In this document: piece after piece, positions 3,084-63,325 of the stretch
How positions within the stretch are numbered: position 1 is the stretch's first letter
Layout of the letters: every line of letters begins with the position of its first letter
Assembly: GCA_041751195.1 (NCBI GenBank)
Contig: JBGSXX010000002.1
Coordinates: 35,839 to 99,838, forward strand
Direction: 5' to 3'
DNA length: 64,000 nt
Source: Pyrinomonadaceae bacterium
GTDB taxonomy: Bacteria > Acidobacteriota > Blastocatellia > Pyrinomonadales > Pyrinomonadaceae
Notes under the pieces: model-generated
What the model was told of the DNA's origin: nothing
Database searches by the model: none
What the model saw: only the letters and a program-made list of their open reading frames with translations
Made by a program: the position numbers and the translations under genes

Positions 3084-3349
3084 CGACTGGTCCTCAAAGA
3101 TTTTTGATATTAGTTAACGGAGTGTACTGATAAAGTGCTACGAAATGGTGTCAGTGTCAAGAATCACTAGACGAAATCGTTTAGACGGAATGGAGTCGGC
3201 GCCAAGTGCCGATCTGTGATTTCAGCTAACTACAGATTTCTCAACGATTTGTCAGGGATGTCGTCATCGGTCGGTGACGGTGGCACGTATTTTGTAAGGA
3301 TTCCGATGAACGATAGGAAATAACAGAAGATTTCGGGGAGGAACATATT

Positions 3350-3805
3350 ATGCGACAGATGCAGAAAGTTTTAGTCATAGCTATTTTAATGATCTTTGGT
3401 ATCACGACGCTCGCGCCTGAGGCGTTCGCGCAGAGGCGAAAATCGAAACGTGGGTTGGCTACGAATATTGCGATCGTTGGTGGCGGCACGGCGTTAGGTG
3501 CTTTGATCGGCGGCAAAAAGGGTGCGGCGATCGGTGCAGGTGGTGGGTTGCTCTATGCAACGAGTCGGCGCGGGACGAAGCGTCGTCATGCTAACAGCAA
3601 AACACGCCGTAACCTTAAGGTTGCCGGTGGGGCGCTGGTAGGTGCAGGCGTTGGCGGCTTCGCTGGCAAACGTGGTGCGGCGATCGGTGCTTTAGCGGGT
3701 GCAGGTGCAACGTATCTATACACGAGGAACCAGCGACGGTATTACAGAACGTCGAATGGGCGACAGTTTTACACGCAGAACGGCCGTCGTTACTACGTTC
3801 GTTAG
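3350..3805 (+). CDS. Small secreted glycine-zipper protein
   Basis: GGAGG-type RBS before the ATG. Signal peptide MRQMQKVLVIAILMIFGITTLAPEAFA. Two internal Gly-zipper segments (GGGTALGALIGGKKGAAIGAGGG and GGALVGAGVGGFAGKRGAAIGALAGAG). Basic Tyr/Arg-rich tail. Confidence 0.6.
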   Translation: MRQMQKVLVIAILMIFGITTLAPEAFAQRRKSKRGLATNIAIVGGGTALGALIGGKKGAAIGAGGGLLYATSRRGTKRRHANSKTRRNLKVAGGALVGAGVGGFAGKRGAAIGALAGAGATYLYTRNQRRYYRTSNGRQFYTQNGRRYYVR

Positions 3806-16725: not shown

Positions 16726-17580
16726 TTAGGACGCTCCGCTACCCGAAGCTCTCTGAATCCGCTGCGGCGTTAAATTGAGAATGTTCTCACCTGCCCGAAC
16801 CGAAACAGGCGAGCTCCATAATGCAAAGCCGTCAGCGGTCTTGGTGATACCGAATAGGTAGTAACTACCGGGTTCGACGTCGCTCATATTGGCTTTCCCG
16901 GCCGAATCAGTCGTTCCGGAATACTCGATGTTCTCGTTGATAGCGTTCATCGCCGAGCGATGAAAATCGCTATACCGGCTAGGATCGAGGACCGCGAGCG
17001 CGAGGCTGTTGGAAAGCGAGTTACCCTCGATCGGCTGTAATCGAGCCTCTCGCAGTATCTGTTCCAAGTCCTTTTCGAGCAAATAGAAACGCTCGTTCCT
17101 TACCGCCTGCGGTGTGCCGTTATCGGAAATTACACGAGCTTCGATACGGACGACCCCGCGATCGGTGTTCACCGACGTCTGGGAGCCCGGTACCGTGGAT
17201 TCACTTGTCGGCATTTCGGGCGGGGGAGCAGGAAGCGCGTCGGATGGAGCGACGTCGCTCGGCGGGATCGCCGATCGTGAATCAGTGGTCATGGTGTCAC
17301 GCGCGGGAGGGGCGCTGGTGTTTACCGCGACCCGGAGGTTTGAATTTGCTGCATCGTCGTCGCGCGACATCATTGCGAAAATGAAAAATATAACGAGTAC
17401 TGCGACTACCCCCATGGCGACGAACGCCCAGGGCGGAATGCCCTCAGAGCGGGGCTCCGTGCGTGCTACGACGGGGCGAACCGGTGGCGGCGCTATGTTG
17501 ACAGGCCTGCCGCAACTTGGGCAAGCGACCGCAGAATCGGAGATATCGTGTCCGCATTCAGGACAGTTTACTAATGGCAT
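16726..17580 (-). CDS. Zinc-ribbon membrane protein with Pro-rich linker and C-terminal beta-sandwich-like domain
   Basis: MPLVNCPECGHDISDSAVACPSCGRPV zinc ribbon, one TM helix and a Pro/Ser-rich linker. AAGGGAGGA RBS. The 21-bp array C lies 160 bp upstream. Confidence 0.7.
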   Translation of the reverse strand: MPLVNCPECGHDISDSAVACPSCGRPVNIAPPPVRPVVARTEPRSEGIPPWAFVAMGVVAVLVIFFIFAMMSRDDDAANSNLRVAVNTSAPPARDTMTTDSRSAIPPSDVAPSDALPAPPPEMPTSESTVPGSQTSVNTDRGVVRIEARVISDNGTPQAVRNERFYLLEKDLEQILREARLQPIEGNSLSNSLALAVLDPSRYSDFHRSAMNAINENIEYSGTTDSAGKANMSDVEPGSYYLFGITKTADGFALWSSPVSVRAGENILNLTPQRIQRASGSGAS

Positions 17581-17740: not shown

Positions 17741-17866
17741 GGCGCCTGCCGGCTAGCTCCGGGCGCTTGCCGGCTACCTGCCGGCGCCTGCCGGCTATCT
17801 CCCGGCGCTTGCCGGCGACCTCCCGGCGCGTGTCGGACACCTCCCGGCGGCCGTCCGGGCGGATCC
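17741..17866. repeat. Array C: about 6 tandem 21-bp units with a CCGGC-N4-GCCGG dyad
   Basis: Units start at 17741, 17762, 17783, 17804, 17825 and 17846: GGCGC(C/T)TGCCGGCTA.CT.C.; the last two are degenerate. Position 6 alternates C/T. Intergenic, between the aroC stop and the start of 16726..17580. Confidence 0.85.
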
Positions 17867-17936: not shown

Positions 17937-19139
17937 TTATGGCGATTCAACCGCCGGGCGAGTTGCAACAGTGAAAGAGGTGGAGACTGAGGCAAGATAA
18001 GAATCGACGTTTCGCATCATCTCATCGATCGAATCGCCCCCGAACTTTTCTCGCATCTCGTTGGCAAGAACGATGGCCAGCATTGATTCGGCGATAACCC
18101 CGGCTGCAGGGACGGCGGTGATGTCCGAGCGTTCGAAGGCGGCGGGGCTGTCGGCTTTGGTGTAGATGTCGACGGAGTTGAGGGGCTTCCGGAGCGTTGA
18201 GATGGGCTTCATATAACCGCGGACGCGGAGTTCTTCACCGTTGGTGATGCCGCCCTCGAGGCCTCCGGCCCGGTTCGTCTTACGATCGAATGAAGCTTCG
18301 CCGGCGAATATCTCGTCGTGGACCTGTGAACCGGGGAGTGAAGCGTTTTGGACGCCCGTGCCGATCTCGACGGCTTTGACGGCGTGGACGGACATTATTG
18401 CACGGGCGATGCGGCCGTCGAGCTTATCTTCCCAGGAAGTGTGAGAACCGAGTCCGATCGGTACGCCGTGAGCGACGACCTCGAAAATACCGCCCAGCGT
18501 GTCGCCGTCAGTTTTTGCTTTATCGATGGCGGCGATCATTTCGGCTTCGGCAGCTTTGTCTGTGCAGTTCAGGGGCGAGTCGGATTCGATGCGACTGATG
18601 TCTTCCCACGTGGCAGTTAGTGGGTTATCGGGGATACCGCCGAGAGAAACGACGTGGCTTCGGACCTCGACGTTGAATGTTTGCAGAAGTTGTTTGGCGA
18701 CGGCGCCTGCCGCAACGCGGGCGGCTGTTTCGCGTGCCGAAGCTCGTTCGAGGATGTCGCGAAGGTCGCGGGTCTGGAACTTCTGGCCGCCCGCGAGGTC
18801 TGCGTGACCGGGTCGTGGACGGGTCACGGTGCGGGGGTTTTTGGGCTGCACCTCAAGTGGCTCTGCGGACATGACCTCTTGCCAGTGAACGAAATCTTTG
18901 TTCTCGATCATGAGCGCGATAGGCGAGCCTAGGGCTTTGCCGTGGCGGATGCCGGCGAGGATCTGCACCGTGTCGCTTTCGATCTTCATTCTGCCGCCGC
19001 GGCCGTAGCCTTGTTGGCGACGCCAGAGTTCGTGGTCGATGGCTGCCTTGTCGATTGGGAGTCCTGCGGGAACGCCCTCGATGATTGTGACCAATGCGGG
19101 ACCGTGAGATTCGCCTGCGGTTGTGAATTTGAAGTGCAT
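17937..19139 (-). CDS. aroC: Chorismate synthase
   Basis: 400 aa. [26 protein letters not shown] and [12 protein letters not shown]-like blocks are typical of AroC. Confidence 0.95.
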
Positions 19140-34461: not shown

Positions 34462-35829
34462 CTAGGCCATTCCGCGGATGGTTTCGAGAACAAAGTCGAT
34501 CTCGGCGGTCGTGTTGACGATCGACGGGGTCAGCCGCGCGTGCGGGAAGGCGTAGGGCGTGACTGATGCGACGATGCCGCGTTCCCCCAGGGCATTGACG
34601 GCGCCGCCGGAGGAATAGCCCGCGACGTCGAAACAGACGATGCCCGCGGAGATGTCTTCGCTTTGCGGCGTGACGAGGTCGACGTGTTCCATTTCGGCGA
34701 GGCCCTGTTTCAGGCGGCTCGCGAGTTCGCGGGTGCGTGCCTCGACGCGGTCTTTGCCGATGTCGAGCATGAAATCGAACGCGTCCGCCATTGCCCATTG
34801 GTGTTCGAAAGGTTTGAAGCCGCCGGGCGTCAGACGTCGGCCGGTCGTGGGGCCGCTGATTCCGCGGCCGGTTATCCAAGCGTTTCGGACGCTATTGTCG
34901 GAGAAAGTGGGGATCGTCGGTTCGATGTTTTCCCAGCCTTTGGCGCTCGCCCAGACGATGCCGGTGCCGCGAGGGCCGAAGAGCCATTTGTGGCAGCCGG
35001 CGGCGAAGTAATCGCATTCCAGATCGGCCATTTCTACGTCCTCGATGCCAAATCCGTGAACGCCGTCGACGGCGAGCAGGATGTTCTGATCGGGCTCGCG
35101 TGTCGCGTTGATCTCGCTGATGCCTCCAGAGATCTGCCGAACGGGGAGCTTGAGGCCGGTGCTCGAATGCACCCAGGTCAGGGCAACGACGCGCGTTTCC
35201 GGGAGGATGGCGTTGAGGATCCGGCTAGTTAGTTCGTCGATTGTGACGGTGTTGATGTCGGAGTACATCGGGATCGTGCGGTAAGTTGCTCCCGATTTCC
35301 CGCATTTGAGGCGGATGGCTTCGTCGGTGGAGTAATAATTTTGCTCGGTGGTCAGAAACTCCTGGCCGGGGCCGATCTTGATGCCGTTATAGATGAGTCC
35401 GAGGCCCATAGTGGTGCTGTCCGTGATCGCAATGTCCTCGTGCGACGCTCCGAGATAGCGGGCGGCCGCACGCAGGGTTTCATCTTCGTTGCCGCTGTTA
35501 TTTTCGTTCAGATAGCCGACCGGGTCGACATCGAGTCCGCGCCTGTGGCGTTCGATAGCCTCGCGGACGGGAGCGGGGTTCGCGGCGATGAGCAGTGCGC
35601 TCATGTGGATCTTGTCGTCGGTTAGCGCGAACTGGCTGCGGACCTTCGCCCAGTCATCGGAATCGGGCTGCTGCGCCGCGACGGGGATCGGCTTGGCAGC
35701 GCGGGTCGACCTTTCGGGCCCGTCGTCCGATCCGCACGCGACGGCCAGAGCCGCGCCGCCCGCGAGAGCAGCCTTGATAAAGTTCCGGCGATCAACACCA
35801 GAAGTGTTTCGATTCGATTCAGTTCGCAC
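34462..35829 (-). CDS. Class V aminotransferase-fold PLP enzyme with Tat signal and lipobox-like Cys
   Basis: ORF 34462..36081, but its N-terminal 84 codons run through repeat array A. An in-frame GTG at 35829 gives MRTESNRNTSGVDRRNFIKAALAGGAALAVACG (twin-Arg motif RRNFIK, then AVAC). The body resembles cysteine desulfurase / isopenicillin-N-epimerase-like enzymes (ALTWVHSSTG, CHKWLFGPRGTG). Confidence 0.7.
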   Translation of the reverse strand: MRTESNRNTSGVDRRNFIKAALAGGAALAVACGSDDGPERSTRAAKPIPVAAQQPDSDDWAKVRSQFALTDDKIHMSALLIAANPAPVREAIERHRRGLDVDPVGYLNENNSGNEDETLRAAARYLGASHEDIAITDSTTMGLGLIYNGIKIGPGQEFLTTEQNYYSTDEAIRLKCGKSGATYRTIPMYSDINTVTIDELTSRILNAILPETRVVALTWVHSSTGLKLPVRQISGGISEINATREPDQNILLAVDGVHGFGIEDVEMADLECDYFAAGCHKWLFGPRGTGIVWASAKGWENIEPTIPTFSDNSVRNAWITGRGISGPTTGRRLTPGGFKPFEHQWAMADAFDFMLDIGKDRVEARTRELASRLKQGLAEMEHVDLVTPQSEDISAGIVCFDVAGYSSGGAVNALGERGIVASVTPYAFPHARLTPSIVNTTAEIDFVLETIRGMA

Positions 35830-35971: not shown

Positions 35972-36243
35972 GCGCACTCACCAGCTGCGTCAGCGCACTC
36001 GTCAGGTGCGTCAGCGCACTCGTCAGGTGCGTTAGCGCACTCTTCAGGTGCGTCAGCGCACTCAGTAGTGCGCCAGCGCACTCAGTAGGTGCGCCAGCGC
36101 ACTCGGTAGGTGCGCCAGCGCATTCGGTAGGTGCGCCAGCGCACTCAGTAGGTGCGCTAACGCACTCGGTAGGTGCGCTAACGCACTCAATAGGTGCGCT
36201 AGCGCACTCGGTAGGTGCGCTAACGCAGCTGATAGGTGCGCGG
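35972..36243. repeat. Array A: 13 tandem units (12 x 21 bp, one 20 bp) with a GTGCG-N4-CGCAC dyad
   Basis: Units start at 35972, 35993, 36014, 36035, 36056 (20 bp), 36076, 36097, 36118, 36139, 36160, 36181, 36202 and 36223. Consensus GCGCACTC(A/G)GTAGGTGCGC(C/T)A. The parse was verified against the translation of ORF 35833..36324. Confidence 0.95.
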
Positions 36244-36259: not shown

Positions 36260-36288
36260 TTGCGGTGTTTCGAGTGATTTGCTATATT
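36260..36288 (+). promoter_or_regulatory. Sigma70-like promoter candidate for the 228-aa gene (paralogue A)
   Basis: TTGCGG-N17-TATATT, 59 nt upstream of the ATG at 36348. Followed by leader stem-loop GCCTT-N7-AAGGC (36295-36311) and an ACAGGAG box. Confidence 0.45.
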
Positions 36289-36347
36289 CTTTTTGCCTTA
36301 TCATCCAAGGCGCTACCCCAGTAAATACAGGAGCTGCAAGAAAATAG

Positions 36348-37034
36348 ATGCCAGATAAACCTTTACCGAGAGGCGAGGCCGAGCTCGTGATCTTTCTTCA
36401 TGTTTTCAACGCAAAACTAGCTATTCACCACGTTGCTCTGGGCATTTCCGCCGAAGAAGTGGCCCAAATGCAGTTGAATACTGATAATTTTGTCTATCTC
36501 GTGAATCTTTCGAGGCAGGTGCAGGACACGCGTGATGCGTTTGCGCGGTTCAAAGATACGGCGCTGTACGGCGATCTGAACGAGCCGACGCCACACATTC
36601 CGGTGTTTCCCACTGTCGCACCGCCCGAGACCATCAGCACCGGGATCGTTACGTATTTGAAGATGATCATTCGCAAGATGAAGAGCTCGGGGAAGTGGAC
36701 ACGGCAGCTCGCGGAGGAATTTGGGCTGTGGACGGATGATCCCTCGCCGAATCCTGCGTCGATCACTCCTGTGCTGTCGGGCTGGGCGTTGCCGATGGGC
36801 GAGGTCGCGATCAAATTCCTCAAATATCGGCGCGAGGGCATTCGCCTTGAGCAGCGAATGAGGGGGGAGCAAACGTGGACGAGCCTCGGGAACTTTACGA
36901 AGTCTCCGATCATCCTGGGACCGGGCGGCAAAAACGGCGATCCGATCGCCTTCGAATTCCGCGCACGCTTCACCGAAAACGACAAACCCGTCGGCAACTT
37001 CTCATCAGTCATGACCGTCATCACAACGCCCTAG
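36348..37034 (+). CDS. Hypothetical 228-aa protein, paralogue A (helical N-domain plus FN3-like C-domain; family not recognised)
   Basis: An in-frame TAG lies immediately before the ATG. Aligns without gaps to 60912..61598, with 119/228 identical positions by hand count. The C-terminal ~95 aa follow an FN3-like pattern (...W..L...; FEFRARF; PVGNFSSVMTVITTP). No signal peptide. Confidence 0.8.
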   Translation: MPDKPLPRGEAELVIFLHVFNAKLAIHHVALGISAEEVAQMQLNTDNFVYLVNLSRQVQDTRDAFARFKDTALYGDLNEPTPHIPVFPTVAPPETISTGIVTYLKMIIRKMKSSGKWTRQLAEEFGLWTDDPSPNPASITPVLSGWALPMGEVAIKFLKYRREGIRLEQRMRGEQTWTSLGNFTKSPIILGPGGKNGDPIAFEFRARFTENDKPVGNFSSVMTVITTP

Positions 37035-37135: not shown

Positions 37136-37477
37136 CTATTCGGGGCTATGAAAATCAAATGCCTCGGCTAACTCATCATTCTCAAAAAGGTCGGCGACCA
37201 GGCGCTCGACAACCTCGGTATTCAAGTGCTCGACGACTATCATATCCTTACAGAAGAAATACAGCCCTCCAGCGCAATCTCCATTTCTTTTGCTTCTTTT
37301 GAGCTGTGTCTGCAGGTTTACTAAAGTGAAAACCGTTGCCGTGTAGAAGCTACCATCATTCAAGGTTACCTGGACGTCGACATTATCGTCGTTCTCGTCT
37401 ATGGGGTCGGACCTACCCGAGAAGATAGTAATTACATACTGCGGTCTTCGTATCTCAAGATTTGGATTACTCTCCAT
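37136..37477 (-). CDS. Hypothetical small acidic cytoplasmic protein (immunity-protein-like, unverified)
   Basis: ORF 37136..37558; I preferred the ATG at 37477 (MESNPNLEIRR). AT-rich relative to its surroundings. The pattern ...GGLYFFCKDMIVVEHLNTEVVERLVADL weakly recalls small polymorphic-toxin immunity proteins. Confidence 0.45.
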   Translation of the reverse strand: MESNPNLEIRRPQYVITIFSGRSDPIDENDDNVDVQVTLNDGSFYTATVFTLVNLQTQLKRSKRNGDCAGGLYFFCKDMIVVEHLNTEVVERLVADLFENDELAEAFDFHSPE

Positions 37478-37575
37478 AGCAGTCCGTAGGAACTCGGCGC
37501 GTCTAGGTCTGTGATGCGCGGAAGTTGGTTGCGGTAGGAGCGCCTGGCATCGCGGCACCCCGGCCTACCTAGCGA

Positions 37576-38238
37576 TTAATGGTCTTTCCAGTCCGTTTGC
37601 ACTTTTTGATATCGCTTCGTCAGCAGCCTTGACTGTTTACTCTCAGTTCCCAGTAAGTCGACAAACATTTCGACCGTACCTTGATGGTTATCGGAATGTG
37701 GCCCGTCGAAAAGGAAATACCAAAAGGACGCAGCTTTCTCATCCGGCAACTCGTCCAATATTCGCTTTGCCTCATTCATATGATTTCGGACCAATGTCTG
37801 TGAGCGACGTTGAAATACCGAAATGGCATCTGCGTCCCATCTTCCATCGACTCCCGTGTGAATAACCTTATTCAGCTTTGCCAGATCCGACACTTCGGGG
37901 CAATCGAAAAAGTACTCCAGATGAGTTTCAGTCTGTGAAATCAAAACGCGTTCGCCCATCACCTCGTCGAACCCATACAGACTATCAAGCTCGGAGATTG
38001 ACTTTGGAAAAAGTTCGACGAAATTTTCGCAATTCTTAGTGTTATATGATTCAGTGAGATTCTTCGCGGCCAGTTCGAAGTGATCATCTACCTTCGGCGT
38101 ACCGCTTACCTGGATTGACGCGGTCTCGTTCGTTCTTGGATCGGCGTTCGGGCTAGGTTCAGGACTATTGCACGCAAAAGTCATAAACATGCCAAGACAG
38201 CCAGCAACGAAAACAGCTTTCTTACTTGTGTTACACAT
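37576..38238 (-). CDS. Hypothetical lipoprotein
   Basis: ORF 37576..38265 (TTG). The ATG at 38238 is 7 nt after AGGAGG. Signal MCNTSKKAVFVAGCLGMFMTFAC with a lipobox-like FAC. AT-rich. Confidence 0.6.
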   Translation of the reverse strand: MCNTSKKAVFVAGCLGMFMTFACNSPEPSPNADPRTNETASIQVSGTPKVDDHFELAAKNLTESYNTKNCENFVELFPKSISELDSLYGFDEVMGERVLISQTETHLEYFFDCPEVSDLAKLNKVIHTGVDGRWDADAISVFQRRSQTLVRNHMNEAKRILDELPDEKAASFWYFLFDGPHSDNHQGTVEMFVDLLGTESKQSRLLTKRYQKVQTDWKDH

Positions 38239-38268
38239 TAGTGTGCCTCCTGTGAAGATCGTCAAATC

Positions 38269-38646
38269 CTACCAAGGATCGATTGCAATTCGGCCGGACA
38301 GACTGTCGAACCTCACCAAGACCTGCCATGTAAATAGCTTCGATATAAGCGTTGCCTCGTCTCTTCCGTCCAGAATCTCCCTTATCCGACGATCCTCAGG
38401 TTTAAGAGAGTTTATATAGTCCCGACAACTGCCACTGTTCGATCGCGTGCGATTCTTGTCCGTTACAAAATAACGTGAAATCGTAGCTACACAGCCTTGG
38501 CAAAAAACCTTTTGAAGCGTGTTACCCTCGCGCAATAATCTGAATTTATACTCGGTGGACGTCTTGATAATTAAAAACAGCCCATCCTCATCCGGCTTCG
38601 CATTCTCAAGAAACAAGGGAGAGCCGCTCGTTAATGTTTCTTTCAT
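38269..38646 (-). CDS. Hypothetical protein
   Basis: 125-aa ORF. Its start overlaps the stop of 38643..38879 (ATGA). AT-rich. No motif recognised. Confidence 0.45.
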   Translation of the reverse strand: MKETLTSGSPLFLENAKPDEDGLFLIIKTSTEYKFRLLREGNTLQKVFCQGCVATISRYFVTDKNRTRSNSGSCRDYINSLKPEDRRIREILDGRDEATLISKLFTWQVLVRFDSLSGRIAIDPW

Positions 38647-38879
38647 GAACGCCTTGTACTGTCGAATCCTTCCGTTTCATTCAGCAATAAAAAAAGATCG
38701 CTATTTTTCACTACGACCTTTCCGGTATACCCATTCGACGATACGTCCAAAGCGATAAAGTAGCGGCCGTCTGAATCAAGCAAATGATCGAAGTAGTCGA
38801 GCTGATTCCCTAGGCCGCTAGTTGTGAAGGCCACCAAGATCGATATCGCGATAAGAAGTTCTATTAATTTTGTAGACAT
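38643..38879 (-). CDS. Hypothetical small secreted or anchored protein
   Basis: 78-aa ORF with an N-terminal hydrophobic helix (LIELLIAISILVAFTTSGLG). Translationally coupled to the downstream ORF. Confidence 0.4.
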   Translation of the reverse strand: MSTKLIELLIAISILVAFTTSGLGNQLDYFDHLLDSDGRYFIALDVSSNGYTGKVVVKNSDLFLLLNETEGFDSTRRS

Positions 38880-39044
38880 ACAATTTGATGCTCGAACTTT
38901 TGGCTCTCACTTAGTTGCACCTGGCCGCCAGGCATGGCAGCAACCCCGCCCTCTCGGCGGCCAAACCCAACGCGACCACGGAGAAGCCCGCCTCTTCCCC
39001 GACCGCCTCCGCCGCAAAACCGGGTGGCATTCGACCCAATTCTG

Positions 39045-39518
39045 TTACTTCTGGAGCGCTTTATTTACCATCCCCCAGCAAACGAACACGAGCTGTTTTG
39101 CGTAGAAAGTTTCCTCGTCGAATACCGAAATATCCGGAACTAACAATACGAACACCGAAGTCGGCTCAACTGACTGTATCGACACACCTTGCCAGCGTGA
39201 CTTAATTAGCACGTGAGCCACGTCGAGTCGTTCCCGGCACGCCGTCTCAGCTTCTTCGTCCTGTTTAGTCGGTTCGAATAAATAGCTGAACGGTTCGTCA
39301 AGCTTTACAAGGTGCCAATCATCCCCCCAGTCTTCTGACGCGACAATGCGCACTACCCTCCCAGAGCGCGGTAGGATACTTTCCATCTGGAGATTCTGGT
39401 CAAAGTAGCGAAGAATAATTTGCTCGCCGATCATAATTATCGTCAATATGGCGGAGGCAACTGAATAACACAAGGCACGGGCGGAGAGGAATGCATTGGC
39501 CCACGCCGTGCCGGGCAT
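39045..39518 (-). CDS. Hypothetical protein (possible N-terminal TM helix)
   Basis: 157-aa ORF starting 16 nt after the prfC stop. Start uncertain (internal Met residues). No motif recognised. Confidence 0.45.
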   Translation of the reverse strand: MPGTAWANAFLSARALCYSVASAILTIIMIGEQIILRYFDQNLQMESILPRSGRVVRIVASEDWGDDWHLVKLDEPFSYLFEPTKQDEEAETACRERLDVAHVLIKSRWQGVSIQSVEPTSVFVLLVPDISVFDEETFYAKQLVFVCWGMVNKALQK

Positions 39519-59796: not shown

Positions 59797-60090
59797 CTAT
59801 ATCTCGAATCTGCGTCGCTCAATGATCTCACAAATCTCATCACCCAATGTTGAGTCGTCGAAGAACTTGGAAGCATAGTATTTGGGGATGTCCACGAGAT
59901 CTCCGGATTCAAGTTTCAGGTAAAGATCGTCACTGCCATTTCGATCAATGATCTAAACAGTTTTAATAAGTTTTTCTCCTTCATCCGAGACCTGGGCGTT
60001 GCCGATGGTCGTAGAGCCGAGCCACATAGGACCAGCGGCTGTCATCGAGAAAAGTATCGCCGCCGCACCGCACCAATATATCTTTTTCAT
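59797..60090 (-). pseudogene. Small signal-peptide ORF interrupted by one in-frame TAG (45 codons, stop, 51 codons)
   Basis: Own translation from the ATG at 60090: MKKIYWCGAAAILFSMTAAGPMWLGSTTIGNAQVSDEGEKLIKTV, then TAG at 59955-59953. The same frame continues IIDRNGSDDLYLKLESGDLVDIPKYYASKFFDDSTLGDEICEIIERRRFEI and ends at TAG 59799-59797. GAGGA lies just upstream of the ATG. Confidence 0.4.
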
Positions 60091-60120
60091 TGATCCTCTA
60101 GTCAAAGTTTGACATTAGTG

Positions 60121-60774
60121 TTACTCATCATCGAAATTATCTCTGGCGACTACGAGAGGCTCGATCAAAGAAACGAGTTCTCTTAACTCCTTTTCATTTT
60201 TGTCCGTTTTTTCTTTGCGGTTTCTGTAACGGGTATATACTTTCGCGCGGCCTTTGATGAAATGAAGCCCGACGTCGGTCAGCGCGGTATTCGCGTAAAC
60301 GTTTTTAACCAGAACGGCCTCGTCTCCTACTTCACGAACCTTGATAAAATCTCCCATTGAAATAAAATCCAAACTTCTCCAGAAATCCTCACTCATTCCT
60401 TTTTTAGCGAGCCTTAAGTTAATGACTAGAAATAGATTCTTTTGCTTGCCATTCTGCCAGGATATTTCGTTTACCGTGCTGCCCCGCTCTCCCGGCGGCA
60501 TCGAAATCAAATGCGACGCACGTTTATTTTTTAGCTTATATTTAGGCTTTTCTTTGGCCATAATTTCTATAATATCTTCCTGAATCCGCTGAGCCTCAGC
60601 AAAAGCCATGTCAACCTTTTCCTGCGGAACATTCTTGTCACGTTCCAGCAGGTTCTGCCGCCCTTCGTCAGGAACCTGGGCGATGCTGATACTCGCCGAA
60701 CCGATCCCCAGATAACAAAGGGCCACCAAAGCGAAGAGTGTCGCGGTCACGGCGCGGCAATCGATCTTATTCAT
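60121..60774 (-). CDS. Hypothetical secreted protein (AT-rich ORFan)
   Basis: ORF 60121..60789 (TTG); I preferred the ATG at 60774 (MNKIDCRAVTATLFALVALCYLGIGSASISIAQV signal). Hand counts on two 60-nt lines give 35-38% G+C, versus about 60% in a flanking housekeeping line. Confidence 0.6.
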   Translation of the reverse strand: MNKIDCRAVTATLFALVALCYLGIGSASISIAQVPDEGRQNLLERDKNVPQEKVDMAFAEAQRIQEDIIEIMAKEKPKYKLKNKRASHLISMPPGERGSTVNEISWQNGKQKNLFLVINLRLAKKGMSEDFWRSLDFISMGDFIKVREVGDEAVLVKNVYANTALTDVGLHFIKGRAKVYTRYRNRKEKTDKNEKELRELVSLIEPLVVARDNFDDE

Positions 60775-60859
60775 TGTTCCTAGCTCCAAATTGCGTTTGC
60801 GTGCCCAGACCTGTGATGCCCGGGGATTTGGTCATGATAGCACGGGCCACAAACAACAA

Positions 60860-60886
60860 TTCCCGCCAGTCACCCTCTGGCGGGAA
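60860..60886 (-). terminator. Rho-independent terminator after paralogue B
   Basis: The minus strand reads TTCCCGCCAG-N7-CTGGCGGGAA followed by TTGTTGTTT. It lies 25 nt after the stop of 60912..61598. Confidence 0.7.
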
Positions 60887-60911: not shown

Positions 60912-61598
60912 TTACGGCGTTGTTACGACCGTGATTACTGCTGAGAAGTTGCCGACGGGGCTGTCCTTCTCGGTGTATCGGGCTCGAAACTCGACGATCT
61001 GGGGCTGGCCGGTCTCAGACGGCGGAGTAAATTTGATGGGCGACGTCGTCCAACGACCCAAGTTCTTCCACTCCGATTCGCCCTTAAAACGCCATTCGAG
61101 CTGAATGCCCTGACGCCCGTTTTTGCGATACCGGACTTCAAGCTCACCCAGCGGCAAGGCGGTAGCCGTAAGCACCGGCATATTCGATTCGGGGTCCGGC
61201 GACGGATGATCAGACCAAAGGCCAAACTCTTCCGCCATCTGATTCGTGTATTTCGTCGTACTCTTCATCTTCCGAATGAGCAATTTCGCGTAAGTAATGA
61301 TCCCCGGCTCGCCGGCTTCCGGCAAGTTGATAGCCGGGAATGCAGGCGTGGGAGGTGTCGCACCGTCAACATCGCCATAAAGCATCGTCTGCTTAAAATC
61401 GGTAAACGCTTCACGCGTATCCGCCACCTGTTGGTTAACGTTAATGAGGAAGGTGAGATTCGCGACATGATTAGCCATCATCGCGATCTCTGTGGGGCTT
61501 ATTCCAAGCGAAGGTCCGTAAGTAACGAGCTTCTCTTGGAAGTTAACGAAAAAGGGAACGAGTTCTGATTCAACTCGCGGTATCTGTTTGTCAGGCAT
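60912..61598 (-). CDS. Hypothetical 228-aa protein, paralogue B (same family as 36348..37034)
   Basis: Same length as paralogue A and aligns to it without gaps, with about 52% identity by hand count. Shared blocks are MPDK..PR.E.ELV, LGIS, IRKMKS, AEEFGLW, FRAR.TE.D.PVGNFS and TTP at the C-terminus. Confidence 0.8.
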   Translation of the reverse strand: MPDKQIPRVESELVPFFVNFQEKLVTYGPSLGISPTEIAMMANHVANLTFLINVNQQVADTREAFTDFKQTMLYGDVDGATPPTPAFPAINLPEAGEPGIITYAKLLIRKMKSTTKYTNQMAEEFGLWSDHPSPDPESNMPVLTATALPLGELEVRYRKNGRQGIQLEWRFKGESEWKNLGRWTTSPIKFTPPSETGQPQIVEFRARYTEKDSPVGNFSAVITVVTTP

Positions 61599-61664
61599 AG
61601 TGCTAACTTATAACTCCTGTTCTTAGTTTTATATGAAATTTGCCTCGGGTGACGTGGCAAAGAA

Positions 61665-61694
61665 AATATACCAAAAATGTTTTGGTAGTTGCAA
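61665..61694 (-). promoter_or_regulatory. Sigma70-like promoter candidate for paralogue B
   Basis: The minus strand reads TTGCAA-N18-TATATT, 66 nt upstream of the ATG at 61598. Followed by leader stem-loop TTTGCC-N11-GGCAAA (61661-61639) and an ACAGGAG box, the same layout as paralogue A. Confidence 0.45.
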
Positions 61695-61781
61695 CTAGAT
61701 TTTACGTCTCGGCAAGATCGCTTGCGCCCACGGCCGGAATCGGCTCCCCGAACGCAATAAAATAGGCCATATCTGCGGCTT

Positions 61782-62179
61782 TGCAACTCCGACTTGCGCG
61801 ATTGCAAATCCAGTCTGCGACGTTGCAAATCCAATCTGCGCGATTGCAAATCCAATCTGCAACGTTGCAAGTCCAATCTGCGCGATTGCAAATCCAATCT
61901 GCAACGCTGCAAATCCAATTTGCGCGACTGCAAATCCAATCTGCGAGGTTGCAAATCCAATCTGCAACGCTGCAATCCAATCTGCGCGATTGCAAATCCA
62001 ATTTGCGACGTTGCAAATTCAATCTGCGCGATTGCAAATCCAATTTGCGAGGTTGCAAATCCAATCTGCAACGCTGCAACTCCAATCTGCGCGATTGCAA
62101 ATCCAATTTGCGACGTTGCAAATCCGATCTGCGCGATTGCAAATCCAATCTGCGCGAGCGCAATTCCGACCTGCGCGGG
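61782..62179. repeat. Array B: 19 tandem units (18 x 21 bp, one 20 bp) with an AT(C/T)TGC-N6-GCAAAT dyad
   Basis: Plus-strand consensus TGCAAATCCAATCTGC(G/A)NNNN. The first unit starts at 61782. The 20-bp unit is at 61971-61990. The last two units are degenerate. The parse was verified against the translation of ORF 61781..62272. Confidence 0.95.
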
Positions 62180-62308
62180 CGCAAATGGGTGGGGCTTGCC
62201 CAGAAGAAGCCGCCTAAAGGCGGGATTTTTAACGGGCGGCGGGTCCGGTGGCTTAAGCCAACTGGAATTTAGAGGAAGGGCCCGTGGAGGCCCTTCTGCT
62301 GTCGGCGT

Positions 62309-63325
62309 TTATTTGGTGGTGGCTTTGGTTTTGGGTTTGGGCGGTGATTTTTTTGCGGCTCGGGGGGCTTTTGGTTTTTTTGCCGGGGCGGTGGGGTTTA
62401 GGAGGGAGGTCCAGTGGTAGTTGGGTTGGTCCCAGCCGGTTTTAAGTTTGTTGAGGATGAAGTCGGTCATGGCGTCGACTATCCAGCGGTGGTTGTATTC
62501 GCCGACGGAGGCGAGTTCGGCGTCGGGGGCCGGGTTCATAAAGTCGATGGCGTAGGGGATGCCGTCTTTGATCGCGAATTCGACGGTGTTGAGGTCATAG
62601 CCGAGCGCTTTGCAGATGGTGATGACGTCCTGTTCGACGCGCTGGTGGAGTTCGGGCGTGAGGTAATCCTCGACGTTTACGTACTGCATGCCGGAAAGGT
62701 ACGGCTTAGAGGGGTCGTAGGGCATGATCAGGACTTTCTCTTGCCCGACGCAGTAGCAGCGGACGAACTGGTCGTATTCGATGCCTTCCTGCAGGGTCAT
62801 GCAGAGCGTGCCGGACTTGTTGTACTCCTCGAAAAGCTGTTCGAGCGTGTGGATCTTTGAGACGTTCTTCCATCCGCCGCCGTCGAAGGGTTTGAGGAAC
62901 GCGGGGAAGCCGACGTAATTGACGATGCCTTCCCAGTCGAGGGGGAATTCGAGGTTGCGGAGCGATTCGCTCGTGATGTCTTTGATATAGCTGTGCTGCG
63001 GGAGGAGCACGGTCTTCGGGATCGCGACGCCGATCTTTGCGGCGAGCGAGAAATTGAAGAACTTGTCATCGGCGGACCACCAGAAGGGGTTGTTGATGAC
63101 CAAAGTGCCCTCAAGCGCCATGCGTTTGAGCATTGCGCGATAGTAGGGGATCTCGTGCGAGATGCGGTCGATGATGACGTCGTAACGCTTCGTCTCGTCA
63201 AGGCGGATGCCGCCGACCTTTACCATTTCGGCAACGACCTCGCCGCCGCCTTTTTCGTTGATGCTGTTGATTATCGATTCGGGGAAGGTGACCTCGCGGC
63301 CGACCAAAATACCTACGCGTTTCAT
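62309..63325 (-). CDS. ATP-grasp fold protein with a Lys/Pro/Ala-rich C-terminal tail
   Basis: 338 aa. The layout resembles RimK / inositol-phosphate-kinase-type ATP-grasp enzymes (FPAFLKPFDGGGWKNV; NTVEFAIKDGIPYAIDFMNPAPDAE). Tail NPTAPAKKPKAPRAAKKSPPKPKTKATTK. Confidence 0.6.
   Translation of the reverse strand: MKRVGILVGREVTFPESIINSINEKGGGEVVAEMVKVGGIRLDETKRYDVIIDRISHEIPYYRAMLKRMALEGTLVINNPFWWSADDKFFNFSLAAKIGVAIPKTVLLPQHSYIKDITSESLRNLEFPLDWEGIVNYVGFPAFLKPFDGGGWKNVSKIHTLEQLFEEYNKSGTLCMTLQEGIEYDQFVRCYCVGQEKVLIMPYDPSKPYLSGMQYVNVEDYLTPELHQRVEQDVITICKALGYDLNTVEFAIKDGIPYAIDFMNPAPDAELASVGEYNHRWIVDAMTDFILNKLKTGWDQPNYHWTSLLNPTAPAKKPKAPRAAKKSPPKPKTKATTK

Follow-up and report, generated by a model that had tools for sequence, protein, structure and literature searches.

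The window analysed here, a stretch of 64,000 nucleotides from a Pyrinomonadaceae bacterium (Acidobacteriota; GenBank assembly GCA_041751195.1, contig JBGSXX010000002.1, positions 35,839 to 99,838, forward strand), contains two diverged genes of an unassigned protein family, referred to as paralogues A and B. Directly upstream of each gene lies a tandem array with a period of 21 bp, and the association of gene and array recurs throughout the family. The elements of the two loci are, in order of their coordinates (Shine-Dalgarno is abbreviated SD):

35972-36241, no strand assigned: array A, tandem repeat of 21-bp period comprising ~12 units of consensus AGCGCACTCGGTAGGTGCGCT (Tandem Repeats Finder, TRF; 21-nt register)
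36260-36288, plus strand: putative sigma-70-type promoter A, TTGCGG (36260-36265), 17-nt spacer, TATATT (36283-36288); 8/12 to consensus
36295-36311, plus strand: stem-loop A, GCCTT-ATCATCC-AAGGC (N7 loop), at the predicted mRNA 5' end and part of the minimum-free-energy fold
36327-36333, plus strand: SD box A, ACAGGAG, 14 nt before the ATG
36348-37034, plus strand: paralogue A, a protein of 228 aa with a helical N-domain (residues 1-~130) and an FN3-like C-domain (~140-228)
60860-60886, minus strand: predicted intrinsic terminator B, 10-bp stem with 7 GC pairs, then a T-rich tail
60912-61598, minus strand: paralogue B, a protein of 228 aa that shares 52% identity with A
61614-61620, minus strand: SD box B, ACAGGAG, 15 nt before the ATG
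61639-61661, minus strand: stem-loop B, TTTGCC-N11-GGCAAA, at or near the predicted mRNA 5' end
61665-61694, minus strand: putative promoter B from a promoter scan, TTGCAA, 18-nt spacer, TATATT, TG extension
61771-62177, no strand assigned: array B, ~19 units with a 21-bp period; on the gene strand GCAATCGCGCAGATTGGATTT and GCAACGTCGCAAATTGGATTT alternate in a 42-bp super-unit
62210-62223, minus strand: terminator-like hairpin CCGCCTTTAGGCGG with a T-rich tail, at the end of the upstream gene (62309-63325, minus strand) and just short of array B

Both open reading frames (ORFs) comprise an ATG start and 228 codons at these coordinates. End to end, BLASTP aligns the two proteins with 119/228 identities, 158/228 positives and 0 gaps (E=3e-87), which reproduces the equal length, the ungapped alignment and the identity count that an earlier note, made from the letters of the window, had arrived at by hand. 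Its view that the pair reflects an old duplication rather than a recent repeat also holds, because only 43% of the four-fold degenerate sites are identical between A and B. The B protein is identical to the database protein P0004, and the source genome probably encodes several paralogues, three to five, each with a different array. At the loci inspected, the family genes are monocistronic, and for B the terminator of its own that had been proposed was recovered as a 10-bp stem at 60886-60860 on the minus strand.

The arrays, mentioned only in the closing sentence of the earlier note as 'paralogue-specific', prove to be real and strong by TRF, which places array A at 35992-36241 (period 21, 12 copies, score 295) and array B at 61781-62177 (period 21, 19 copies, score 465; period 42, score 515). 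Array A consists of two consecutive sub-types, CAGGTGCGTCAGCGCACTCGT and then AGGTGCGCYARCGCACTCRGT, and each of its units contains the dyad GTGCGC-N2-GCGCAC. Motif searches of the 64 kb returned 22 matches for the array A unit (0.48 expected) and 16 for the array B unit (0.19 expected), all within the respective array; a regulon of single sites is ruled out for the 64 kb by this confinement. Likewise, the units follow each other head-to-tail without spacers, ruling out a CRISPR array. Three sizeable arrays of 21-bp period are found by TRF in the window, two of them those directly upstream of A and B. The third, at 17741-17849 (unit GGCGCCTGCCGGCTACCTCCC, 5.2 copies), is the sole one not associated with the family; it follows aroC (17937-19139, minus strand) and precedes an unrelated gene (16726-17580, minus strand), whose product combines a zinc-ribbon and a transmembrane (TM) segment with a C-terminal beta-sandwich that gives weak matches of the CarboxypepD_reg/fn3_3-like kind.

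The family to which A and B belong is not small. An exhaustive profile search of 1.84 billion representative proteins, clustered at 50% identity, retrieved 1,206 representatives at E<=1e-3, of which 416 also pass at E<=1e-10; with few exceptions they are 226-235 aa long and matched by the profile over their full length. A word-indexed search covering 5.8 billion proteins yielded only four close relatives, one of which is encoded at locus L001, an orthologue of A (82% identity) in a metagenome-assembled genome of the Blastocatellia. The family occurs in Acidobacteriota, Verrucomicrobiota and, probably, Bacteroidota; few members are named, namely as 'hypothetical protein' from Blastocatellia, Verrucomicrobiota and soil metagenomes, and some loci have neighbours of the type 9 secretion system type. 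Two members, P0005 (locus L003) and P0016 (L017), stem from one sequencing run, SRR28170462. Searches with A and B against Pfam-A, NCBIfam, PHROGs and PADLOC gave a best E of 0.014, all hits being far below the cut-offs, and among the 125 members collected in alignment A2 no Pfam family was matched by more than one member and no NCBIfam or PDB sequence by any; one PHROG 'tail fiber' family was matched in 5/125 (best E=3e-4). The earlier note's failure to assign a family is thus borne out for A, B and the 125 members. No family match was found by tblastn in 72,556 plasmids or 50,697 phages, by which a plasmid or phage origin is ruled out, and all-against-all clustering of the ORFs at 97 loci revealed no conserved neighbour gene, by which a conserved partner gene or operon is ruled out as well. 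Full-text searching of the literature found no description of such a gene-plus-array module.

The array accompanies the gene. All 11 homologue loci that were retrieved independently and include sufficient upstream sequence have an array of 21-bp period, and arrays with a periodicity of 21/42 precede the family gene at L001, L002, L004, L007, L008, L011, L013, L015 and L017; that of L001 comprises 7 units compared with the 12 of A, and the homologue at L002 is only 22% identical, yet an array is present upstream. The contigs of L004, L005 and L006 start inside an array, and that of L003 ends inside one. A lag-autocorrelation scan of the window and ten independent loci, 144 kb altogether, detected 21-periodic DNA upstream of every family gene and in just two places besides. 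A pattern scan of JGI metagenomes, built on a four-sequence alignment, added 80 further loci from the central part of the family; among those with at least 300 nt of upstream DNA, 46/61 exceed the 99.9th percentile of control windows. Periodic windows make up 27% of the interval from -700 to -100, vs 0.5% elsewhere. In 482 of the 500 periodic upstream windows the best lag is 21 or 42; lag 20 comes first in a single window, and no window has 10-11, 22, 31 or 32 as its best lag.

Short-read contigs of the family often stop 200-700 nt upstream of the gene (L003, L004-L006, L009, L010, L012, L016), and since the contig ends inspected (L003, L004-L006, L012) fall within the array, the arrays appear to break assemblies. 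Many loci have two consecutive arrays or sub-arrays of different units with the period of 21 kept, for example L028 (2481-2823), L004 (1-219) and the window (35972-36241), and at L070 one 21-bp unit forms two arrays of opposite orientation, ~120 bp apart (2185-2509 and 2630-2729), upstream of one family gene. Heptamer arrays are found as well, at L002 (2979-3114, 4174-4289, 4663-4783) and L011 (6690-6860, corresponding to L012 1388-1558). On these two Acidobacteria-type contigs, inverted pairs of heptamer arrays flank genes (AATGATG.../...CATTCAT and TAAGTGG.../...CCACTTT), one pair being situated directly 3' of a family gene.

While the period is constant, the sequence of the unit is not. Unrelated pairs reach a best circular identity between units of 9.0/21; where the proteins are 50-70% identical the value is 10.0/21, at 70-90% it is 11.6/21, and a clear rise is seen only above 90%. 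The proteins of L026 and L036 are 85% identical and their arrays unrelated; in the pairs L026/L036 and L046/L072 (proteins 79-85% identical), both the arrays and the upstream DNA are unrelated. Between A and L001, 17/21 positions of the array consensus are identical, as are 77% of the four-fold degenerate sites, so that array sequence seems to turn over at about the neutral rate; a constraint on array sequence among orthologues is ruled out by this equality of array and neutral divergence. Units within one array are 80-98% alike, which argues for their concerted evolution. The arrays have no strand skew and no codon-phase variation (0.401 vs a null of 0.414), and one array lacks any open forward frame; on these results arrays coding for heptads (21 nt being 7 codons) were rejected. 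Dyads that fit TTGNNN-N2-3-NNNCAA are evident in A, B, L001, L002, L003 and L008. Across 59 arrays, however, dyad symmetry is only weakly enriched (mean 6.1 vs 5.3 pairs; 9/59 at p<=0.05), and a universal palindromic operator was rejected on that account. Predicted curvature was assessed with a wedge model, the values of which are only indicative: natural units come out as marginally more curved than shuffled ones (0.834 vs 0.866; 5/59 at p<=0.05), and a repeat of period 21, with a predicted end-to-end/contour ratio of 0.83, as more curved than the same unit at 20 (0.93) or 22 (0.89). Strong intrinsic curvature was rejected, the excess over shuffled units being marginal. Within units, the conservation of adjacent positions co-varies (z=4.5), and a conservation pattern of two patches on one face was rejected because lag 10 gave no significant signal.

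Between array and gene, the earlier note had described a layout of promoter, hairpin and SD box shared by the two copies. This stands for A and B, and the layout is kept in L001 and partly in L003. Promoter A scores below the 9/12 threshold of the promoter scan, and both of its hexamers are identical in L001. Promoter and leader of A are 82/100 identical to those of L001, where stem-loop A shrinks to 4 bp. Compared with shuffled sequences, the leaders are not significantly more stable (z -0.2 to -1.9; A leader -0.67). Only two tRNAs reach the gathering score of Rfam 15 in the window, and the upstream regions give sub-threshold matches to microRNA-type hairpins; a known RNA element in leader or array is ruled out at the Rfam gathering score. 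As judged from the compared loci, these particular leader hairpins and the spacing of ACAGGAG are confined to one subfamily, and the family-wide cis-feature is the 21-bp-period array. Near-consensus promoters are located downstream of the arrays at A, B, L002, L007, L008, L011 and L017. At Acidobacteria-type loci, the array is followed by a near-consensus sigma-70 promoter placed 70-105 nt ahead of the ATG, for example TTGACA-17-TATAGT in L008 and TTGACT-18-TACAAT in L011. The gap between array and -35 hexamer is 3 nt in L001 and ~18 nt in A, and array B sits between the terminator-like hairpin of the upstream gene and its own putative promoter.

The structure of the protein was predicted using AlphaFold2, whose confidence depended on the alignment: with four sequences the mean predicted local distance difference test score (pLDDT) was 46.7, and the 125 sequences of A2 were needed for a pLDDT of 94.7 and a predicted template-modelling score (pTM) of 0.75. 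The model comprises helices at residues 10-27, 35-74, 100-113 and 119-125 and a beta-sandwich at 143-225. The first two helices form a long helical hairpin, which is followed by a proline-rich extended segment, and the two short ones carry the best-conserved motif, GIxxRxRxLVxRIKxxPxYTxxIGxDLGI. Foldseek matches the C-terminal part in the PDB to the fibronectin type III (FN3) domains of integrin beta4, titin, contactin and cytokine receptors, with root-mean-square deviations (rmsd) of 2.2-3.5 A over 90-105 columns (for instance the integrin beta4 FN3 domain, 3f7p: rmsd 2.5 A, 93 columns, Foldseek probability 1.0); in BFVD, FN3 domains of phages match the C-terminal ~95 residues. According to the model, the C-terminal domain is an FN3/Ig-like beta-sandwich, and the helical N-terminal and FN3-like C-terminal parts anticipated in the earlier note agree with both the model and Foldseek. 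By hmmscan, PF00041 is found neither in A or B at E<=10 nor in the 125 members at E<=0.01. Winged-helix, ribbon-helix-helix and LytTR structures are absent from the top 50 Foldseek matches in PDB and BFVD, and the predicted structure revealed no fold resembling a recombinase, transposase or polymerase. No convincing TM segment or signal peptide was detected, as had been noted before: the N-terminus MPDKPLPRGEAE is polar, and the highest 19-residue Kyte-Doolittle windows reach low values of 1.62 in A (amphipathic helix 1) and 0.97 in B. From its sequence, the protein appears to be cytoplasmic.

Copy A is embedded in chromosomal synteny (clpP-clpX-M50 protease ... prfC). Between A and prfC, five small ORFs on the minus strand (140, 229, 125, 78 and 157 aa; 37136-39518) have no Pfam match; since prfC directly follows gene A in the syntenic L001, this segment is best taken as an insertion or island of ~2.4 kb. 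On the other side, a class-V aminotransferase with a twin-arginine translocation (Tat) signal (34465-35790, minus strand) is divergent to array A; in L001 it is reduced to a C-terminal remnant of 96 aa (3347-3637), and the deletion ends close to the array. Directly past terminator B, a signal-peptide protein of 222 aa without a Pfam match is encoded (60121-60789, minus strand), followed by a 50-aa ORF (59953-60105, minus strand) that repeats its N-terminal region and looks like a partial tandem duplication.

Taken from the sequences compared, the conserved module runs from the array through promoter, leader and gene to the terminator and includes no further element. An array that is strictly 21 bp in period while its sequence is free, associated family-wide as a cis-element with one gene, appears to be new. 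A period fixed at two helical turns, a free sequence and the lack of a strand or codon signal suggest that the array acts as double-stranded DNA in a manner dependent on helical phase. Since the arrays are nearly exclusive to the family and no partner gene accompanies them, the gene's own product would be the simplest candidate for reading the array. There are precedents, in plasmid iterons/Rep, parC/ParR and tubC/TubR, for direct-repeat arrays that stand upstream of the gene encoding their binding protein. These considerations lead to a reading that we hold tentatively: the protein may coat its own array as a phased oligomer with a step of two helical turns and thereby control its own promoter. 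The gene product would bind double-stranded DNA cooperatively, as an oligomer or filament stepping two helical turns, and its sequence preference would be weak. Along a 21-bp repeat, every subunit would then meet an equivalent contact, the best one locally, on a single face of the helix, so that the protein would load with high avidity onto any tract of 21-bp period, irrespective of sequence. An occupied array beside the promoter could feed back on transcription of the gene itself, the number of repeats setting the threshold of this feedback. Strict period, free sequence, family specificity and promoter-adjacent position would all be accounted for by an oligomer with a 21-bp step. DNA binding, the phased oligomer and the direction of regulation are what we infer from this pattern, and autoregulatory control, which the arrangement of array and promoter would permit, is inferred in the same way.

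Several observations weigh against this reading. A DNA-binding domain is not recognisable in the protein, FN3 domains being its sole structural neighbours, and the helical N-domain has none in PDB or BFVD by Foldseek. The family is not basic, with a median isoelectric point (pI) of ~6 and a range of 4.8-9.4. About a quarter of the metagenomic loci are without a clear array. The distance between array and promoter ranges from 3 nt to ~500 nt (L007, L011), and a variation of this extent fits poorly with the fixed geometry of an activator or repressor. Finally, arrays of 21 bp are possible without a family protein in cis, because that at 17741-17849 precedes an unrelated gene.

In a first alternative, which is unlikely in our view, the array is a protein-independent promoter element or copy-number rheostat: a hypermutable tract would tune expression in the style of a contingency locus, the 21-bp unit would keep the helical phase between upstream DNA and RNA polymerase, and the job of the protein would be unrelated to DNA. 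Repeat number appears to differ between near-identical loci with the same flanks, being 10.3 units in L028 and 13.3 in L030/L032, and between A and its orthologue in L001, with 12 vs 7 units; all these copy numbers come from short-read assemblies, which may collapse repeats, and are unreliable. The free unit sequence and the several paralogues of the window's genome, with an array each, would also be expected, and period 21 is predicted to be more curved than 20 or 22. Natural units are barely more curved than shuffled ones, however, and phase keeping alone would permit periods of 10-11 or 31-32 bp, which are never the best lag upstream. Moreover, a rheostat leaves unexplained why a single family carries such arrays across phyla and almost no other gene does so in 144 kb.

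The absence of a recognisable DNA-binding fold and the non-basic character of the family protein would be accommodated more easily if the arrays were bound by an unlinked host factor that controls the family and a few other genes, for instance a nucleoid-associated protein or a regulator devoted to this task, with a step of two turns. The comparable array at 17741-17849, in front of the zinc-ribbon gene, points in the same direction. We nevertheless consider such a factor rather improbable: the arrays of paralogues in one genome are wholly different, so that one sequence-specific factor would be needed per array, whereas a sequence-blind factor should leave arrays beside many types of gene, and the arrays are almost exclusive to the family. 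A conserved neighbouring regulator gene is also missing.

Arrays that are unrelated, together with their upstream DNA, between proteins of 79-85% identity (L026/L036 and L046/L072) suggest that arrays are rebuilt de novo. They could be the footprint of a ruler-type DNA transaction, in which a duplicating or mobile cassette adds 21-bp units of fixed length in linkage with the gene and no regulation is under selection. The non-conserved contexts of the module, its several copies per genome and the rearrangements beside copy A, namely the deletion of the aminotransferase gene in L001 and the 2.4-kb insertion in the window, would agree with this. We nonetheless judge a transaction of this kind very unlikely: the protein was found to lack any fold of the recombinase, transposase or polymerase type, neither terminal repeats nor target duplications were noticed around the modules, copies on plasmids or phages were not found, and ordinary unequal recombination is enough to explain how the units are homogenised.

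Even less credence is given to the array acting as RNA, in the form of a long structured leader or repeat RNA, or encoding a heptad-repeat peptide. The array of some subfamilies extends to within ~45-75 nt of the ATG (L024, L054, L047), which leaves little room for a promoter, and gene callers sometimes run an ORF through the array, as in P0012, whose N-terminal 'extension' is a translated array (YDITRVV x8). Opposed to this are the lack of codon phase, of strand skew and, in one array, of an open forward frame; the position of array B after a terminator and before a good promoter; and the promoters downstream of the arrays at the seven loci given above. Neither would RNA or peptide provide a reason for 21 over 18 or 24, and no Rfam match was obtained. 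Functionless satellite DNA persisting beside the gene is scarcely credible, since, despite the roughly neutral divergence of the arrays of A and L001, arrays persist down to 22% protein identity and across phyla, always with period 21, where loss or drift of the unit length would be expected.

To return to the coating of the array by the gene's own product, a wider and doubtful version of that reading may be envisaged, in which the family represents a new class of DNA-binding proteins, a helical bundle joined to an Ig/FN3-like domain, that would read the periodicity of DNA and not its sequence, polymerise in steps of two helical turns on any tract of 21-bp period and form a private filament beside its own gene, serving as an autoregulatory switch or a chromosomal landmark in Acidobacteriota, Verrucomicrobiota and probably Bacteroidota. 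If the link between gene and array is functional, a family of more than 1,200 clusters (50% identity) in at least three phyla has an obligate cis-partner that is set by helical phase and not by sequence, a principle new to us for bacterial regulators. If true, this would provide a function, or at least a handle, for many 'hypothetical proteins' of bacteria from soil and freshwater. A nuisance met in practice, the breaking of short-read contigs 200-320 nt upstream of family genes, is explained as well. Even without DNA binding, the retention of exactly 21 bp in spite of sequence turnover is an unusual evolutionary constraint that needs explanation.

Known systems share single aspects of the module. 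With FN3 domains (PF00041), the similarity is that of the C-terminal ~95 residues, which superpose in the model; here, the domain is below Pfam detection, apparently cytoplasmic and fused to a helical domain without structural neighbour. In contingency loci, promoters contain variable-number tandem repeats (VNTRs), such as the 7-bp repeats upstream of the hmw genes of Haemophilus influenzae. Repeats upstream of a promoter and paralogues with tracts of their own are common to both, as are, apparently, differences in repeat number among close relatives, whereas the unit here is long and strictly 21 bp across phyla, and the products are without signal peptide and not obvious surface antigens. The sites of LytTR regulators (AgrA, ComE, PlnC/D) are direct repeats spaced 21 bp from centre to centre (9-bp repeats, 12-bp spacer) just upstream of the -35 hexamer, and the LytTR DNA-binding domain is mostly beta. 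They comprise only two repeats with a conserved 9-mer and are served by a separate two-component regulator, in contrast to the long arrays without conserved sequence described here, and no LytTR structure is among the top 50 Foldseek matches of the family protein.

The layout also resembles that of parC-ParR and tubC-TubR, in which a small protein encoded by the operon cooperatively coats arrays of direct repeats upstream of it, and the resulting helical complex also represses the promoter. Their units measure 10-12 or 20 bp and not 21 bp, their proteins adopt ribbon-helix-helix or winged helix-turn-helix folds, to which the fold of the family is unrelated, and the module lacks a partner nucleoside triphosphatase (ParM, ParA or TubZ) as well as any conserved neighbour at 97 loci. 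The iterons of R6K, pPS10, F and RK2 are direct repeats of ~17-22 bp with a spacing of about two turns, located upstream of the autoregulated Rep gene, and resemble the arrays in repeat length, spacing and position upstream of the adjacent gene. The module differs in being chromosomal, with several copies per genome and no tblastn match in the 72,556 plasmids, and in encoding a helical bundle and an FN3 domain instead of the winged helix of Rep. The sequence of iterons is conserved and specific, whereas in the arrays of the family just the period is conserved.

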